IMG/VR virus record: IMGVR_UViG_2541047166_000009
Coordinates: 1-4,842 of that record
Strand: one strand, 5' to 3'
Length of the DNA: 4,842 bases
Origin: a virus
Taxonomy: Duplodnaviria; Heunggongvirae; Uroviricota; Caudoviricetes
Shown: piece by piece, positions 1-4,842 of the stretch
Position numbering within the stretch: position 1 is the stretch's first letter
How the letters are laid out: every line of letters starts with the position of its first letter
Translations under genes and position numbers: made by a program
The notes under the pieces: generated by a model
The model's database searches: none
Told to the model about the DNA's origin: nothing
What the model saw: the letters and a program-made list of their open reading frames with translations, nothing else

Positions 1-684
1 GTTCCACCGTACCGGACGGTGGAGGAGTGGCGGGAATGGCAACTTGCTGAAGGACGAAAACGCAGCGAGGAGATTAACCGCCAGAATCACCAGTTGCGGG
101 TGGAAAAAATCCTGAATCGTTCGGGCATCCAGCCTCTGCACAGCAAATGCTCGTTTGCGAATTATCAGGTGCAGAACGACGGGCTAAAATACGCGCTGAG
201 CCAGGCCAAATCCATAGCTGACGAACTGATGACCGGGTGCACGAATTTTGTGTTCAGCGGTAAAACCGGCACCGGGAAAAATCACCTTGCAGCGGCGATG
301 GGTAACCGGCTGATGGCGAAGGGGCGCAGCGTGATTATCGTCACCGTGTCTGATGTCATGAGCGTGTTGCATGACAGCTACGACAACGGCAAATCCGGGG
401 AAAAATTTTTACAGGAGCTTTGCAGTGTTGATTTGCTGGTCCTGGATGAAATAGGCGTTCAGCGGGAGACGAAAAACGAGCAGGTGGTATTACACCAGAT
501 AATTGATCGCCGGACAGCATCACTGTGCAGTGTCGGGATGTTAACAAACCTGAATCATGCCGCAATGAGTACACTTCTTGGTGAGAGGATTATGGACCGC
601 ATGACCATGAACGGTGGTCGATGGGTGACGTTTAACTGGGATAGCTGGCGTCCAAATGTCAGCAATATGAGGGTTGTGAAGTAA
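1..684 (+). CDS. DnaC-like replicative helicase loader (AAA+ ATPase), 5'-partial; frame is open from base 1, so the true start is probably upstream of the window
   Basis: Walker A GKTGTGKNHLAAAMG and Walker B DLLVLDEIG are present. From recollection the protein is collinear with E. coli DnaC across FxNY, the Walker motifs, GMLTNLN, LLGERIMDRM and FNWDSWR. TAA stop at 682-684. The 19..684 track ORF begins at an internal GTG. Confidence 0.9.
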   Translation, partial: VPPYRTVEEWREWQLAEGRKRSEEINRQNHQLRVEKILNRSGIQPLHSKCSFANYQVQNDGLKYALSQAKSIADELMTGCTNFVFSGKTGTGKNHLAAAMGNRLMAKGRSVIIVTVSDVMSVLHDSYDNGKSGEKFLQELCSVDLLVLDEIGVQRETKNEQVVLHQIIDRRTASLCSVGMLTNLNHAAMSTLLGERIMDRMTMNGGRWVTFNWDSWRPNVSNMRVVK

Positions 685-705
685 TTTTGTCCGGAGGAAA
701 TTTTA

Positions 706-1422
706 ATGGAAACCGTATCTGACGCACTGAAAGCACTGAAAAAAGCCTCTTCACATGTGGTGGCAGCTCGCCTTGGAATTAGTCGTGAAGAGGCTGTCAA
801 CGAACTGTGGAAACTGAAACGCCGTGGAGAAGCGGATAACAAGGGGGCGATATGGTGGCTGACTCAGGCTGGTGAAAGTGAACCGGTGTCACCGGTACCG
901 AAAGTGACGGCGCAAATGCTGACAGAGGCGATTGAACAACATGGCCCACAAACGGCGGATGAACTGGCATTGATGTTCGGAATTACCTCCCGCCGGGCGA
1001 ATTCATCGCTGGCAATGGCAATCAGCAAAGGGTGTCTGATTCGCGTGAATCAGGATGGTAAATTTCGTTACTGCATACCGGGCGTTGATTTACCGGCAGA
1101 GCCGAAAGCAGCATCCGTAGCTGAAACGGAGGGTAAAGCCCTTCCTCAGCCAGCTGGTGTTGCGTTACCAGTCCAGGAAACGGCTGCACAGGAAGAAATT
1201 AAAACAGAAGCGGTGGAGGACATTGTGAAGTTGCAGCAATCGTTCACTGAAGCGAAAGCAGATGACCTGATTCTACCATCGCTGCATGTGGCTAACCGCG
1301 AGCTGCGCCGGGCGAAAAGTAATGTTCAGAAGTGGGAGCGAGTCTGTGCTGCGCTACGGGAACTGAACAAACACAGGGATATTCTCCGGGATATTACCGC
1401 CACCAGAGAGCAGCAGCGGTGA
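706..1422 (+). CDS. Phage protein of unknown function, resembling the DUF1627 family found next to replication genes in enterobacterial prophages; two predicted winged-helix-like N-terminal segments, an acidic Pro/Ala-rich linker and a C-terminal coiled-coil-like region
   Basis: 238-aa ORF with GGAGG at 693-697, 8 nt before ATG 706. It starts 21 nt after the upstream stop. Composition is protein-like. The family name is by recollection only. Confidence 0.8.
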
Positions 1423-1736
1423 GTGGCTGGAAGAAGTGGCGCTGGGCTGAAATCCTGATACTCCGGCAGTGTGCGGGAACGATGAGAGTCGAAAGCATCG
1501 GTTATCTGATTGGCCGTAGTGAGTCAGCCGTCAGGACGAAAGCGCGGGAACTGGGTATCAGCATGATGTTACGGGGTGATTATCACCAGTCAGCCAAATG
1601 TTCACAGCGTGATATTGAGCTGGCGTGGCAACTGCATCAGCGTGGTGTACCCCGACGGGAAATTGCCGAAAAGTTTGGGATGAAGTTGGGCGCAGTGAAT
1701 AACTACGTTTATTTCGACAGGAGGGTTCAGGAGTGA
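1419..1736 (+). CDS. Small putative DNA-binding protein with two tandem HTH-like repeats (about 105 aa); start could instead be ATG 1482
   Basis: GTG 1419 overlaps the upstream TGA as GTGA. Residues from 1419 complete the first of two similar repeats (WAEILILRQ...[21 protein letters not shown] and [31 protein letters not shown]). The track start at 1332 is a GTG deep inside the previous gene and is unlikely. Confidence 0.6.
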
Positions 1737-2035
1737 GGGTGAGGGTTTATATCGCCGGTCCGATGACGGGATATGAAAATTTTAACCGCGAGGCATTTCA
1801 CAAAACGGAAGAGGTGCTGAAACGGGAAGGGCATACCGTTTTAAACCCGGCAGTACTTCCGGACGGGCTGACTCAGCCACACTACATGGATATTTGCATG
1901 GCAATGCTCCGTTGCGTGGATGCGGTTTACATGCTGAAAGGCTGGCAGCAGTCGGCAGGTGCAGGGGCTGAGCTGGCACTGGAGGAGAAACCGGGCCATG
2001 CGGTGATTTTTCAGGAGGTGGGCAGTGAATATTGA
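1733..2035 (+). CDS. DUF4406 / nucleoside 2-deoxyribosyltransferase-like small protein
   Basis: N-terminal VYIAGPMTG motif and a later GWQQSAGAGAELALEE segment match my recollection of this family. GTG 1733 overlaps the upstream stop (GTGA). GTG 1739 is an alternative start, with GGAG 1730-1733 five nt upstream. Confidence 0.8.
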   Translation: MRVRVYIAGPMTGYENFNREAFHKTEEVLKREGHTVLNPAVLPDGLTQPHYMDICMAMLRCVDAVYMLKGWQQSAGAGAELALEEKPGHAVIFQEVGSEY

Positions 2036-2342
2036 CCCGGCGATAACGATTGATATGGCCCTGAACGCCGGCCTGGCACTTCTTGGTTATTTCTACATTA
2101 TGTTCTGCAGCGGACGATGGCTGTCACTGTTGTTCATGAAAAAATGGAATAAACGCCGTAAGCAGGAGCAACGCCAGAAGGCAATGGATGCATTTTTCGA
2201 AGCCTTCGGAATTGACGGCATGGAACCAGGGGATCCAGCTCGCGCAATCAGCAGAGGGGGTGTAGTAATCCTTGTATATCGGAGTGAAGAGAAAAATGAC
2301 GATCACAAAACAACGTGTAGAAGAAATCATATCCCGCATTGA
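2025..2342 (+). CDS. Small hypothetical membrane protein: one predicted N-terminal TM helix followed by a strongly basic stretch (KKWNKRRKQEQRQK)
   Basis: Perfect AGGAGG at 2013-2018, 6 nt before GTG 2025, which overlaps the upstream stop codon. Hydrophobic segment ALNAGLALLGYFYIMFCSGRWLSLLF. Its 3' end overlaps the next gene by 47 nt, so the true extent is uncertain. Confidence 0.5.
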   Translation: MNIDPAITIDMALNAGLALLGYFYIMFCSGRWLSLLFMKKWNKRRKQEQRQKAMDAFFEAFGIDGMEPGDPARAISRGGVVILVYRSEEKNDDHKTTCRRNHIPH

Positions 2343-2613
2343 AATGTATGGACATGGTGCAGGGTATATCGCAGACGAGGTTAATGATCTGGCTATACTG
2401 GCGCTGAATTTATCAAATATCGCGAACCTGAAGCGATACGAGCTTGATATGGGAGGTTGCGACTCGTGCGGTCAGGATTGTGGCGCTGATATGACTGAAG
2501 ATCCTGATGGTGATTATGTCCTGTTTGATGACGTGGTTAAGTTGTTTGAATTTGATACAACCACTCAAAAGTTAGAAATCCCGGCAAAGGAGGCAGCCAG
2601 TGGGCAAGATTGA
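2296..2613 (+). CDS. Hypothetical phage protein (105 aa) with an acidic, Cys-containing C-terminal half
   Basis: ATG 2296 is preceded by GGAGTGAAGAG. Its N-terminus MTITKQRVEEIISRIEMYGHG parallels that of the 3233 gene (MTTITKDRLLTIQHWRETYGPG). The track start at 2272 is a TTG and is less likely. Confidence 0.65.
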   Translation: MTITKQRVEEIISRIEMYGHGAGYIADEVNDLAILALNLSNIANLKRYELDMGGCDSCGQDCGADMTEDPDGDYVLFDDVVKLFEFDTTTQKLEIPAKEAASGQD

Positions 2614-3037
2614 CTATCAGGCACTGCGTGAGGCAGCACAAAACTATCAATCGACGCTGGCGTGGTATCAGGCTACCCCGGACAGCCCAAATGCTGAACG
2701 GGATTGTGATGCGGCTCTTGCTGCGTTTAAGCGTCACATCCGTCATCGGGAAGCGGATATTATCGCTGATTTGCTGGATGGACTGGAAGAAGCAAAATCA
2801 CAACTCAACGAGCAGCGTGAGTATTACGAAGGCGTTATCTCTGATGGGAGCAAGCGTATTGCTGAACTGGAAGCGCGGGAAGTTCAATTACCGACTCGCT
2901 ACGACCTTCGATATGGACACCCGATAAATGCAGATGAGCGACATGTCATGATACCTAAAGAAAATGGCAGTTGGCTTTACCTGATTGACCTAGAACACGC
3001 ATTACGCGTCGCTGGCATTCGCATCAAAGGAGAGTGA
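2600..3037 (+). CDS. ead/Ea22-like family protein
   Basis: AAGGAGG at 2587-2593, 6 nt before GTG 2600. IDYQALREAA, LLDGLEEAK and KRIAELEAREV resemble the conserved N-terminal pattern of Ea22-like prophage proteins as I recall it. Overlaps the upstream gene end by 14 nt. Confidence 0.7.
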   Translation: MGKIDYQALREAAQNYQSTLAWYQATPDSPNAERDCDAALAAFKRHIRHREADIIADLLDGLEEAKSQLNEQREYYEGVISDGSKRIAELEAREVQLPTRYDLRYGHPINADERHVMIPKENGSWLYLIDLEHALRVAGIRIKGE

Positions 3038-3038
3038 G

Positions 3039-3230
3039 ATGAACGGACAAATATCAATTGTTCGACCAGGAGCATGTGACGATCGCGAAATACGAATGAT
3101 TATTCGTCTGGCGATGGGGAAAACAATAACTGCTCTCATTACTCCAGAAAATCTCGCATTAGCATTAACAGGAAAGTCAGACATGCCAGTAGAGCTAAAG
3201 CTGCGAAATGTTGAGATTAAGGTGAAATAG
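3039..3230 (+). CDS. Small hypothetical phage protein (63 aa)
   Basis: AAGGAG at 3027-3032, 6 nt before ATG 3039. Starts 1 nt after the upstream TGA and ends 2 nt before the next start. Confidence 0.6.
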   Translation: MNGQISIVRPGACDDREIRMIIRLAMGKTITALITPENLALALTGKSDMPVELKLRNVEIKVK

Positions 3231-3232
3231 CT

Positions 3233-3790
3233 ATGACCACTATTACCAAAGATCGACTGCTGACAATCCAGCATTGGCGCGAAACATACGGACCGGGTAG
3301 CAACGTTGTGCTTCCAGCAGAAGAAGCGGAAGAGCTGGCACGGATTGCGCTGGCATCACTGGCAGCAGTATCGGATGAACGAGCAGCCTATGAATTATTT
3401 ATGGAGAAGCGTTTCGGAGAATCTGTAGATCGCCGCAGAGCAAAAAATGGCGATAGAGATTACATGGTATGGGATATGGCGCTTGGCTGGATTATCTGGT
3501 GTCACCGCGCCGCCATGCTTCAGGCTGGAAACTTTCGGGAAAATAAGGGTTCGTCAACCAATAATTTTCGGATAATCTCGGAAACGTCAACCAACTCTCC
3601 GGCAATCCCTGATGAGGTGTTGTCCGCAATCCTGAAGGTCGCCAGGCTTCGTGCAGATTTCGATGCTTCTGAAGTGGACAGGCGAGGTATCGGTAGTTGT
3701 CTGGATGAGGCCGAGCAAGAACTTATCGTTACCATTAACGAATACGCCAGTCAGATCGCAGTAGAAGCGACACAGGGGGAGAACCAATGA
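3233..3790 (+). CDS. Hypothetical phage protein (185 aa) whose N-terminus is related to that of the 2296 gene
   Basis: ATG 3233 follows AAGGTGA at 3219-3225. Long protein-like ORF in the operon direction. Confidence 0.75.
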   Translation: MTTITKDRLLTIQHWRETYGPGSNVVLPAEEAEELARIALASLAAVSDERAAYELFMEKRFGESVDRRRAKNGDRDYMVWDMALGWIIWCHRAAMLQAGNFRENKGSSTNNFRIISETSTNSPAIPDEVLSAILKVARLRADFDASEVDRRGIGSCLDEAEQELIVTINEYASQIAVEATQGENQ

Positions 3791-3864
3791 GCCGGCCAGA
3801 TGCATTTGCAGGCGTTGCTATAGCTATTGCTTTTCTAGTATATGTTATTTGTCGGTGGGGGTAA
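3787..3864 (+). CDS. Candidate 25-aa hydrophobic micropeptide (MSRPDAFAGVAIAIAFLVYVICRWG)
   Basis: ATG 3787 overlaps the upstream TGA as ATGA, the same coupling geometry seen elsewhere in the operon. One predicted TM-like segment. Absent from the ORF track, presumably for length. Could be chance. Confidence 0.3.
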   Translation: MSRPDAFAGVAIAIAFLVYVICRWG

Positions 3865-3899
3865 AAACGTTCGCCGGGATTCACACCAAGGGAGGGAAT

Positions 3900-4004
3900 A
3901 TGTCGGATGATATTTCACTGGTAATGGAAGGCGCTCTGGCTGTTATTGCTGTTGTGGGTGTTTACTGCCTGGTTGTGTTTTTGATGGAGCGCCTGGGGAA
4001 CTGA
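3900..4004 (+). CDS. Candidate 34-aa single-TM micropeptide (MSDDISLVMEGALAVIAVVGVYCLVVFLMERLGN)
   Basis: Strong SD AAGGGAGGG at 3888-3896 just upstream of ATG 3900. Hydrophobic core with charged termini. TGA at 4002-4004. Absent from the ORF track. Confidence 0.45.
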   Translation: MSDDISLVMEGALAVIAVVGVYCLVVFLMERLGN

Positions 4005-4014
4005 ATTCATTCCG

Positions 4015-4030
4015 TATGGGAATTCCCATA
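4015..4030. promoter_or_regulatory. 16-bp perfect palindrome TATGGGAATTCCCATA; candidate operator or RNA hairpin just upstream of the hok promoter
   Basis: The sequence equals its own reverse complement. It lies 15 nt upstream of the candidate -35 element. Confidence 0.35.
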
Positions 4031-4044
4031 TCGGGCAAAACGGT

Positions 4045-4072
4045 TTGCTGTAAAGCGAGAGTTAAGTAGAAT
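4045..4072 (+). promoter_or_regulatory. Candidate sigma-70 promoter for the hok/mok mRNA (-35 TTGCTG 4045-4050, 16-nt spacer, -10 TAGAAT 4067-4072)
   Basis: Hexamers read from the sequence. The predicted start near 4077-4080 coincides with the 5' element that is complementary to the 3' end of the locus. Confidence 0.4.
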
Positions 4073-4075
4073 TGC

Positions 4076-4090
4076 TGCGGGTGCTTGAGG
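4076..4090 (+). promoter_or_regulatory. hok mRNA 5' element (tac-like) complementary to the 3' fbi-like element at 4453-4468
   Basis: GCGGGTGC (4077-4084) pairs with GCACCCGC (4460-4467) and TTGAGG (4085-4090) pairs with CCTCAA (4453-4458), giving 14 bp with one bulged C. Confidence 0.5.
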
Positions 4091-4149
4091 CTGTCTGCCT
4101 CGGGCATGCCACCGTAAGGCAGACAGAGAAAAGCCCCAGTTAACATTAC

Positions 4150-4272
4150 GCGTCCTGCAAGACGCTTAACATTAATCTGAGGCCCAATCTATGCTTCACA
4201 AACGTAGGTTAGCCTCTTACGCGCCGAAAGGCAAGGAGAAGCAGGTTATGAAGCAGCAAAAGGCGATGTTAA
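4150..4272 (-). ncRNA. sok: Candidate Sok-like antisense RNA region; boundaries not resolved
   Basis: Expected from hok locus architecture. A weak minus-strand promoter candidate is TTAACA (complement of 4267-4272), 16-nt spacer, CATAAC (complement of 4245-4250). A short hairpin at 4150-4165 could be its 3' end, but no clean U-tract follows. Confidence 0.2.
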
Positions 4273-4403
4273 TCGCCCTGATCGTCATCTGTTTAACCGT
4301 CATAGTGACGGCACTGGTAACGAGGAAAGACCTCTGCGAGGTACGAATCCGAACCGGCCAGACGGAGGTCGCTGTCTTCACAGCTTACGAACCTGAGGAG
4401 TAA
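4191..4403 (+). CDS. mok: Mok-like in-frame N-terminal extension of hok (modulator of killing), 70 aa
   Basis: ATG 4191 with GAGG at 4179-4182. The extension MLHKRRLASYAPKGKEKQV precedes the Hok methionine in the same frame, which resembles chromosomal MokC as I recall it. Confidence 0.55.
   Translation: MLHKRRLASYAPKGKEKQVMKQQKAMLIALIVICLTVIVTALVTRKDLCEVRIRTGQTEVAVFTAYEPEE
4248..4403 (+). CDS. hokD: Hok/Gef-family type I toxin (51 aa), matching HokD/RelF as I recall it
   Basis: MKQQKAMLIALIVICLTVIVTALVTRKDLCEVRIRTGQTEVAVFTAYEPEE has the Hok TM segment and the conserved LCE..IR..G..EVAAF-type periplasmic tail. AAGGAG at 4233-4238, 9 nt before ATG 4248. TAA at 4401-4403. Confidence 0.9.
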   Translation: MKQQKAMLIALIVICLTVIVTALVTRKDLCEVRIRTGQTEVAVFTAYEPEE

Positions 4404-4472
4404 GAGACCAGGCGGGGGAGAAATCCCTCGCCACCGCTGATGTGTCAGGCATCCTCAACGCACCCGCACTTA

Positions 4473-4498
4473 ACCCGCTTCGGCGGGTTTTGTTTTTT
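4473..4498 (+). terminator. Rho-independent terminator of the hok mRNA
   Basis: ACCCGC-TTCG-GCGGGT stem-loop followed by TTTGTTTTTT. Confidence 0.8.
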
Positions 4499-4519
4499 CT
4501 GGTCGTTCTGGTTTACAAT
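4490..4519 (+). promoter_or_regulatory. Candidate promoter for the downstream gene (-35 TTGTTT 4490-4495, 18-nt spacer, -10 TACAAT 4514-4519)
   Basis: Hexamers read from the sequence. The -35 overlaps the terminator T-tract, so this is weak. Confidence 0.25.
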
Positions 4520-4570
4520 CCATCCGTCAGCCTGAACAACTGGCACCTGCTGCGCCAGCAGAGAAAACAG

Positions 4571-4842
4571 ATGGCGCACGATACCAAATTTTACAATTCG
4601 GATAACTCTGCCGCCCCTGCCAGCAGGCACGGGCGGCGTTCTCATGCATTCAAATCTGACTGGTATCAGCACGACCCCTGCACCGAAGAACAGGCTGAAT
4701 GGCTGATTCAGTGTTACCGCAGGCGCGGATACGAGGTTAAAAAAGCCCTCAGTCTCGATTATCGTCACTGGATAATCTCCGTCAGGCTCCCTTACTCCGA
4801 ACGGCCACCGCGTCCGTCCCGCACATTCCAGCAACGGATCTG
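4571..4842 (+). CDS. Hypothetical protein, 3'-partial (continues beyond the window); family not recognised
   Basis: ATG 4571 is the first start after the terminator in a frame that stays open to the window end (90 codons), with a purine-rich AGAGAAAACAG upstream. Not in the track, presumably because it has no in-window stop. A 129-aa ORF on the opposite strand overlaps it. Confidence 0.45.
   Translation, partial: MAHDTKFYNSDNSAAPASRHGRRSHAFKSDWYQHDPCTEEQAEWLIQCYRRRGYEVKKALSLDYRHWIISVRLPYSERPPRPSRTFQQRI

Follow-up and report, generated by a model that had tools for sequence, protein, structure and literature searches.

A complete and probably functional hok/mok/sok type I toxin-antitoxin cassette in the early-right region of a lambdoid Escherichia coli prophage

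Introduction

Does a hok toxin gene found on a prophage stand as an isolated reading frame, or does it come with its own promoter, leader and antitoxin, and what might such a unit do for the phage that carries it? These questions are raised by a locus at positions 4045-4498 of a 4,842-nucleotide (nt) stretch of viral DNA (Caudoviricetes; IMG/VR record IMGVR_UViG_2541047166_000009, positions 1 to 4,842), the whole of which is called the window below. A preliminary description had proposed a self-contained hok/mok locus at this place. We examined directly the sequence elements, their folds and their covariation among related loci, and the proposal was borne out, as the locus has its own promoter, leader, mok frame, Sok promoter and terminator. 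With high confidence we read it from its sequence as a complete and canonical hok/mok/sok type I toxin-antitoxin cassette, probably functional and of the kind known as a 'moron', with its own promoter and terminator.

The toxin gene and the overlapping mok frame

The open reading frame (ORF) at 4248-4403 on the plus strand encodes the product MKQQKAMLIALIVICLTVIVTALVTRKDLCEVRIRTGQTEVAVFTAYEPEE, a peptide of 51 amino acids (aa) that matches the Pfam family HOK_GEF with 81.6 bits (cut-off 22) and PHROG 251, 'MokW-like host killing' of the moron category, with 114.7 bits. The NCBIfam Hok subfamily model gave 48.5 bits for this Hok, under its cut-off of 73; that model is centred on other Hok subtypes. 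All residues are equal to those of HokD from E. coli K-12, and the two coding sequences (CDS) are equal in nucleotides as well. Toxicity of the identical HokD peptide has been reported, HokD having been used as a toxic control (10.1101/2025.08.07.668861).

The same frame is open from an ATG at 4191, located 19 codons upstream of the hok start, and a GAGG Shine-Dalgarno (SD) motif lies 8 nt 5′ of this ATG. The resulting mok product would be 70 aa long. This layout is the same as in K-12 mokC, which has its stop codon in common with hokC, and in R1-type mok (71 aa). Both the 51-aa HokD/RelF-like toxin and the in-frame Mok extension of the preliminary description could thus be recognised. The elements of the cassette are the following:

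4045-4050 and 4067-4072, plus strand: predicted hok promoter read from the sequence, with -35 TTGCTG, a 16-nt spacer and -10 TAGAAT.
4079-4498, plus strand: predicted full-length hok mRNA of approximately 420 nt.
4079-4090, plus strand: tac (translational activator) element, GGGUGCUUGAGG, paired with 4453-4465 in the minimum free energy (MFE) fold.
4091-4126, plus strand: 5′ leader stem-loop of the MFE fold.
4130-4199, minus strand: predicted Sok antisense RNA of approximately 70 nt, running from about 4199 to 4130, with a 15-nt unpaired 5′ tail, a long terminator hairpin and UUUU.
4179-4182 and 4191-4403, plus strand: SD GAGG and mok ORF in frame with hok, read from the sequence and its translation.
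4234 to 4229 and 4211 to 4206, minus strand: predicted Sok promoter read from the reverse complement, with -35 TTGCCT, a 17-nt spacer and -10 TAACCT.
4210-4225, plus strand: ucb-like box, UAGCCUCUUACGCGCC, overlapping the Sok -10 and nearly invariant across genera.
4233-4238 and 4248-4403, plus strand: SD AAGGAG and hok CDS, assigned from the ORF translation, family matches and K-12 identity.
4411-4432, plus strand: hairpin of the 3′ untranslated region (UTR), from the MFE fold.
4438-4450, plus strand: dcb-like element (approximate limits), paired with ucb in the full-length fold.
4453-4465, plus strand: fbi (fold-back inhibition) element, CCUCAACGCACCC, paired with tac in the MFE fold.
4472-4498, plus strand: intrinsic terminator of the hok mRNA, with a 7-bp stem at 4472-4489 (five G-C pairs), loop TTCG and a T run to 4498.

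One further motif lies inside the toxin gene:

4386-4389, plus strand: TACG at the Tyr47 codon, read from the sequence, a signature of A-to-I editing by TadA.

Editing of K-12 hokD has been reported at this tyrosine, which is position 46 in the alignment of that paper (PMC5630033). Editing at 4386-4389, in a CDS equal to that of K-12 hokD, would recode Tyr47 to Cys and give the peptide a second cysteine.

Promoters, leader, Sok RNA and terminator

The -10 hexamer of the predicted hok promoter, TAGAAT, aligns with TATAAT of hokC and TAGGAT of hokB and places the predicted transcription start at G4079. Positions 4062-4078 are conserved among 72 distinct loci, and the -35 hexamer matches the sigma-70 consensus at only three of six positions. 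Because of this poor -35 match the hok promoter was missed by a simple sigma-70 consensus scan, which placed its one plus-strand promoter call at 4166-4195, inside the leader, and we regard this call as a chance match. The 5′ end of the hok mRNA was set from the start of the Rfam model described below and from alignment to the R1 hok mRNA start, GGCGCUUGAGG, and its 3′ end from the terminator.

The leader so defined (4079-4190) measures 112 nt up to the mok ATG and 169 nt up to the hok ATG. Rfam model RF01794 matches 4079-4253 on the plus strand over its full length (1-157) with 114.9 bits (E 1.6e-26), the gathering score being 59. Control loci were matched as well, all on the hok strand: 109.7 bits for hokB, 118.3 for hokC, 113.5 for Sp5 hokW and 87.2 for R1-type hok. 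No match to this model was obtained in the K-12 Qin hokD region. The candidate promoter, the structured leader of about 110 nt and the terminator, here a hairpin at 4472-4489 with a T run reaching 4498, had all been named in the preliminary description, and each of them was recovered. Two features it had not located are present in addition, namely the predicted antisense Sok gene and the 5′-3′ closure of the mRNA by tac and fbi.

The predicted Sok promoter aligns with R1-type TTGCGC/TATCCT and is nearly invariant among the loci. Judging from primer YO-421, its -10 is the hexamer that was replaced in the promoter-less sokW construct (PMC8621323). Assignment of both the hok and the Sok promoter rests on homology, and the 5′ end of Sok was placed by reference to K-12 sokC, whose annotated start lies 9 nt inside mokC. 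An RNA of 70-73 nt starting there folds with -29.2 kcal/mol (z = -5.55), and none of 200 shuffled sequences folds as well. The probe used for northern detection of sokW (PMC8621323) maps to the stretch homologous to the predicted Sok. At the sequence level, the putative Sok promoter, located inside mok, is thus accompanied by a terminator hairpin and U tract, and the putative RNA is complementary to the mok translation-initiation region.

RF01794 carries the name of the 'sok' antitoxin, yet it matches the sense strand, that is, the hok mRNA leader up to the hok AUG. Automated annotation based on this model therefore assigns 'Sok' to the opposite strand and makes it about twice as long as it is.

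Long-range fold and covariation

Folding of 4079-4497 gave an MFE of -174.9 kcal/mol, with the first 12 nt (tac) paired with 4453-4465 (fbi). As a separate duplex, tac would bind fbi with -21.9 kcal/mol and ucb with -19.5 kcal/mol. The ucb box pairs with 4434-4452 with -10.7 kcal/mol, and with 4441-4450 in the full-length MFE structure.

For each of 95 distinct loci we took its own tac and looked for the best partner within 200 nt past the stop codon. This partner lies 45-56 nt past the stop in almost every intact locus, in genera ranging from Escherichia to Photorhabdus and Erwinia. The two elements change together: GGGUGC/GCACCC in Escherichia and Kluyvera is GGGCGC/GCGCCC in Photorhabdus and Pantoea, and GAGAC/UCUC can replace GAGGC/CCUC.

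The MFE structure of the window was then projected on an alignment of 32 diverse loci. Paired cells amounted to 83.4%, vs. 37-43% when the partners were slid by 1-3 columns; 50 pairs were changed on both sides, and none of 500 shuffles reached the observed covariation score. Pairing was high in the tac-fbi helix (helix 1, 90.9%, four pairs changed on both sides), the 5′ leader stem-loop (helix 2, 90.9%, four such pairs), the Sok hairpin region (helix 4, 93.3%, six compensatory pairs) and the 3′ UTR hairpin (helix 20, 95.9%, four compensatory pairs). One compensatory change is seen in the window itself, where G4093-C4124 stands in place of the A-U pair of most loci.

Relation to hokD of K-12 and occurrence of the locus

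In K-12 MG1655, hokD lies in the cryptic prophage Qin directly after relB-relE. Its homology to the window starts at approximately 4234, 14 nt before the ATG and at the hok SD, and ends at approximately 4498. When the K-12 RelB and RelE proteins were compared with the window by tblastn, no match was found at E<=10. The relBE-hokD operon arrangement is therefore absent here, where hok has a leader, mok and a Sok promoter of its own and RelB/RelE were not found. The statements that K-12 hokD is the third gene of relBEF, that it lacks the leader elements (its homology begins only at about 4234 and it has no Rfam leader match), and that the window holds no RelB/RelE-like ORF were all correct. K-12 hokD is a truncated derivative, and the window contains the ancestral, complete form.

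Among 80 IMG/VR loci with an identical HokD, 78 have a leader match, which covers the full leader in 71 of them, and two (L091 and L095) have none. The K-12-type junction or truncation was found in these two and in the genome loci L010 and L047. Approximately 90% of the recovered loci with identical HokD thus keep the leader. The contrast with K-12 drawn in the preliminary description is real as a difference between an intact and a truncated locus. The intact form is, however, no special copy but the normal one, K-12 being the derived exception.

A segment of 501 bp (4020-4520) is 100% identical in many chromosomes of O157:H7 and other Shiga-toxin-producing E. coli; the CDS bears the label 'type I toxin-antitoxin system toxin HokD' in them. 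Since the region is found unchanged in so many sequenced genomes, its features are not due to chance. Similar sequence occurs in 4739 of 5426 complete E. coli genomes, at a median of two places and a maximum of ten, and 79 phage records match, labelled 'host killer protein', 'MokW protein', 'gef: phage maintenance protein' or 'HokD toxin'. A survey counted 44,248 Hok homologues, with hok approximately four-fold enriched in prophages (10.1101/2025.08.07.668861), and multiple hok/sok loci in enterobacterial genomes had been catalogued by 2006 (PMC1635323). Given the RefSeq annotation, the phage records, the experiments on Sp5, the 2025-26 survey and the 2006 catalogue, the locus has to be counted as already known, and it is recognised by RefSeq, PHROGs and Rfam.

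Near-identical HokD sequences were also seen on short non-enterobacterial contigs assigned to Acinetobacter idrijaensis (L021, 275 bp), Xanthomonas pisi (L026, 431 bp) and a metagenome-assembled genome of Candidatus Scatousia (L059). These copies are most likely contamination by E. coli or phage DNA and not a true occurrence.

A hypervariable recognition segment and other variation of the locus

One short segment departs from the general conservation of the mRNA:

4185-4206, both strands: hypervariable island, which on the plus strand takes in the start codon of mok and the loop of the predicted target, and on the minus strand the start site and 5′ tail of Sok.

Across 62 intact HokD-type loci, the mean pairwise difference is 29% in this segment (14 variants), 3.7% in 4079-4184, 2.9% in 4207-4247 and 0.8% in the CDS. 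No other 22-nt stretch of the mRNA is as diverse, and in 5000 permutations the observed maximum was never attained. Two genomes with three co-resident copies were examined, ECMA0423 (E. coli) and SFBU1023 (S. flexneri), and in each the three copies carry different variants (locus sets L008/L009/L016 and L011/L013/L017).

One possible reading of this pattern is diversifying selection on the recognition step, with each prophage's Sok protecting only against its own hok mRNA. We put this forward tentatively and consider it rather unlikely; relaxed constraint on a loop is the alternative account. If true, each prophage in a polylysogen such as O157:H7 would retain a control, or addiction, of its own. 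The segment could also serve as a simple handle on cross-talk among co-resident hok/sok loci.

Other variants were observed among the related loci. Eight of the 62 loci (L139-type) have insertions or deletions through which mok and hok no longer share a frame. In seven loci (L077, L081, L088, L090, L118, L128 and L138) the leader is 22 nt shorter and hokC-like, lacking the Sok hairpin extension, which was seen directly in four of them and deduced from the overall pattern for the rest. Judging from these sequences, leader modules appear to recombine independently of the toxin gene.

The IMG/VR contig L136 is 100% identical to window positions 3849-4498 and approximately 99% identical downstream, but carries an insertion resembling an insertion sequence (IS). 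This insertion is 1.1 kb long (L136 positions 1890-2986), encodes a 362-aa rve/HTH transposase on the minus strand and sits in the hok SD (window 4234-4239), with AGGAGA duplicated on both sides. The relE-hokD junction of K-12 falls at the same nucleotide (4234), which suggests that this is a recurrent break or insertion point uncoupling hok from its leader.

Genomic context

The ORFs of the window with family matches, all on the plus strand, encode an IstB/DnaC-like ATPase, DUF1627, DUF4406, DUF4752 and an Ead/Ea22-like protein. An O157:H7 chromosome matches 3849-4842 at approximately 99-100%, and there a small hypothetical gene, DUF968, RusA, Q, tRNAs and lysis genes come after the locus, with cI/cro-like and replication genes before it. 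The cassette thus falls within the early-right operon, in its nin-like part, downstream of the replication genes and upstream of Q, and is co-directional with the operon. The prophage early region named in the preliminary description is therefore more precisely the early-right region, from the replication genes to Q, of a lambdoid E. coli prophage.

Directly 5′ of the hok promoter there is a 34-aa hydrophobic ORF (3900-4004, plus strand; MSDDISLVMEGALAVIAVVGVYCLVVFLMERLGN), annotated as a hypothetical protein in O157:H7 and giving no match in Pfam, NCBIfam or PHROG. From its sequence, it could be a second small membrane protein beside Hok.

Downstream, the ORF at 4571-4842 (plus strand) runs off the end of the window. 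It is 92 aa long in O157:H7 and belongs to PHROG 1212, where its function is unassigned. Its identity with K-12 Rem, the product of the gene after hokD in K-12, was rejected, as tblastn gave no match. K-12 keeps 83% identical DNA further downstream that matches the gene of this ORF and may be a remnant there.

Three small RNA candidates were also rejected. Matches to isrK (27.2 bits, E 0.006, gathering score 50) and rsmX (21 bits vs. a gathering score of 56) at 4407-4493 were not accepted as members of these families; they are driven by the 3′ UTR hairpin and the terminator, and the resemblance to isrK is probably due to chance. The prophage small RNA PasA, reported near Sok matches (10.64898/2026.05.13.724894), is not in the window; it sits between sialate esterase and holin genes.

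Discussion

How would such a cassette work? By homology with R1 hok/sok and Sp5 hokW-sokW, the plus strand would give a stable mRNA of approximately 420 nt with tac clamped to fbi, and this clamp would keep the hok mRNA closed both to translation and to Sok. Slow trimming of the 3′ end would remove fbi, whereupon tac would re-pair with ucb and the mok ribosome-binding site and the Sok target would be exposed. Hok would be made only when mok, which starts 19 codons upstream in the same frame, is translated. A constitutive promoter on the minus strand would meanwhile supply the short-lived Sok of approximately 70 nt (4199 to 4130), which would pair across the mok SD and start codon, block translation of mok and hence of hok, and mark the duplex for RNase III. 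Once Sok synthesis stops, the pool of processed mRNA would be translated; possible triggers are prophage induction, shut-off of transcription by an infecting phage and loss of the element. Hok, a 51-aa inner-membrane peptide, would then collapse the membrane potential. In this scheme it is transcription, RNA half-lives, processing, toxicity in context and the trigger that we infer from the relatives.

The main role of the cassette is most likely the release of Hok on induction, which would advance lysis as measured for Sp5. There, HokW is toxic, and sokW expressed from its own promoter neutralises it, partly via RNase III and Hfq; upon mitomycin C treatment sokW RNA is lost and HokW appears in the inner membrane, for which RecA is required, and deletion of hokW-sokW halves phage release (PMC8621323). 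In the window, transcription reading through from PR under antitermination, once the prophage is induced, would oppose the convergent Sok promoter. Such interference is plausible because the locus is co-directional within the early-right operon, and it would fit the RecA-dependent loss of sokW RNA in Sp5.

Several observations weigh against a working cassette of this kind. The sigma-70 consensus scan called neither the hok nor the Sok promoter, and the ucb-dcb helices (7-8) are only 62-75% paired across the 32 loci, which is moderate conservation. MFE folds of 3′-truncated mRNAs did not reproduce the tac-ucb pairing; tac was paired with 4442-4454 or with 4131-4137, depending on the cut. Because of these folds we infer the refolding step from the family, and its likelihood is suggested by the duplex energy and by family precedent. 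Also, the chromosomal loci hokA, hokB and hokC reportedly gave no post-segregational killing (Pedersen and Gerdes 1999, cited from 10.1101/2025.08.07.668861), so an intact sequence is no guarantee of a killing phenotype in single copy.

This last point leads to the view that the locus is a silent relic, intact in appearance but, like the chromosomal hok loci of K-12, no longer able to kill and merely carried along. Only one of the five K-12 loci has escaped inactivation, and those chromosomal loci that were tested gave no post-segregational killing (10.1101/2025.08.07.668861; PMC5630033); natural knock-outs are evidently tolerated, with an IS in the hok SD of L136 and K-12-type truncations in L010, L047, L091 and L095. 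Yet in the window all elements are intact and no disabling change is visible. The CDS differs by 0.8% among the 62 loci, and hardly any variation is seen in tac, fbi, ucb, the two SDs or the Sok promoter, whereas the flanks differ by 30-57%, which indicates purifying selection. Compensatory changes maintain the helices, and the 92% identical Sp5 locus is active (PMC8621323). We therefore consider a silent relic quite improbable. That the window holds only a Hok ORF whose expression and control come from neighbouring genes, in the way that K-12 hokD relies on the relBE promoter, has in its favour that the identical CDS is so arranged in K-12. This view can be regarded as excluded, since no RelB/RelE was found in the window (tblastn, E<=10), the full leader, mok and Sok promoter are present, and the leader scores above the Rfam threshold here but gives no such match at K-12 hokD.

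It is possible, if somewhat unlikely, that the module works but was selected for stabilisation of the prophage by post-segregational killing, or for abortive infection, and not for the phage's own lysis. R1 hok/sok stabilises plasmids and partly excludes T4, according to a passage of PMC8621323; the four-fold enrichment of hok in prophages (10.1101/2025.08.07.668861) agrees with such a role, and a cassette with its own promoter and terminator would be expressed in the lysogen. On the other hand, direct data on the near-identical prophage locus of Sp5 show a pro-lysis effect, hok is not enriched next to defence systems (10.1101/2025.08.07.668861), and single-copy chromosomal loci failed in tests of post-segregational killing (10.1101/2025.08.07.668861). 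The pro-lysis, stabilisation and exclusion roles are not mutually exclusive.

With release of Hok on induction as the most likely role, cassettes of this type may tune the timing of lysis after induction of Shiga-toxin-type and related lambdoid prophages. Most E. coli genomes contain several hok/sok cassettes. For annotation, the prophage carries a full hok/mok/sok set of which RefSeq labels only the 'hokD' CDS, the mok ORF and the Sok RNA being unannotated.

Comparison with known hok/sok systems

The K-12 Qin locus has the same Hok protein and CDS as the window, and its hok SD, 3′ UTR with fbi and terminator are the same at 96% identity. It also lies in a lambdoid prophage (there a remnant), upstream of DUF968 (ydfU) and Q (ydfT) homologues. 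Unlike the window, it lacks the hok promoter, tac, leader, mok, Sok target and Sok promoter and has relB-relE in their place.

The hokC/mokC/sokC (gef) locus of K-12 shares with the window the in-frame mok, an identical tac (GGGUGCUUGAGGCU) and a very similar leader (118.3 bits), and HokC is approximately 82% identical to the Hok of the window (compared through locus L019, which has the same HokC peptide). It differs in that IS186 lies 20 nt past the stop codon and fbi is lost, in that its leader lacks the Sok hairpin extension, and in its chromosomal, non-prophage location.

Plasmid R1 hok/sok (parB), the paradigm of the family, has the same gene order and logic. There too mok begins 19 codons upstream of hok in the same frame, RF01794 recognises the leader (87.2 bits for the R1 type vs. 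114.9 here), the mRNA begins with tac, and the Sok promoter is in the same place with the same 17-nt spacer. Hok identity is only approximately 44%, a figure given for HokW vs. R1 Hok (PMC8621323). The Sok hairpin is approximately 20 nt longer and the 5′ stem-loop shorter in the window. R1 hok/sok is borne by a plasmid and the window locus by a prophage; post-segregational killing is a trait of R1 and would apply to the window type by analogy at most.

The closest relative with experimental data is hokW-sokW of Sp5/VT2-Sakai (Takada et al. 2021, PMC8621323), also on a lambdoid prophage. Sp5 lacks the sequence of the post-fbi terminator of the window and its flanking genes are unrelated, a mosaic context; the 22-nt segment of the Sok tail and target loop differs at six positions. 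HokW and the Hok of the window are equal at 47 of 51 residues, the four differences being C-terminal (TAYEPEE in the window vs. VDYESEK in HokW). Otherwise the two cassettes match element by element, the promoter and the leader each being 90% identical, the SD and CDS 95%, and the 3′ UTR 90% over the 72 nt that align. No difference is found in the tac, fbi and Sok promoter hexamers, and both loci have the same Sok hairpin extension.

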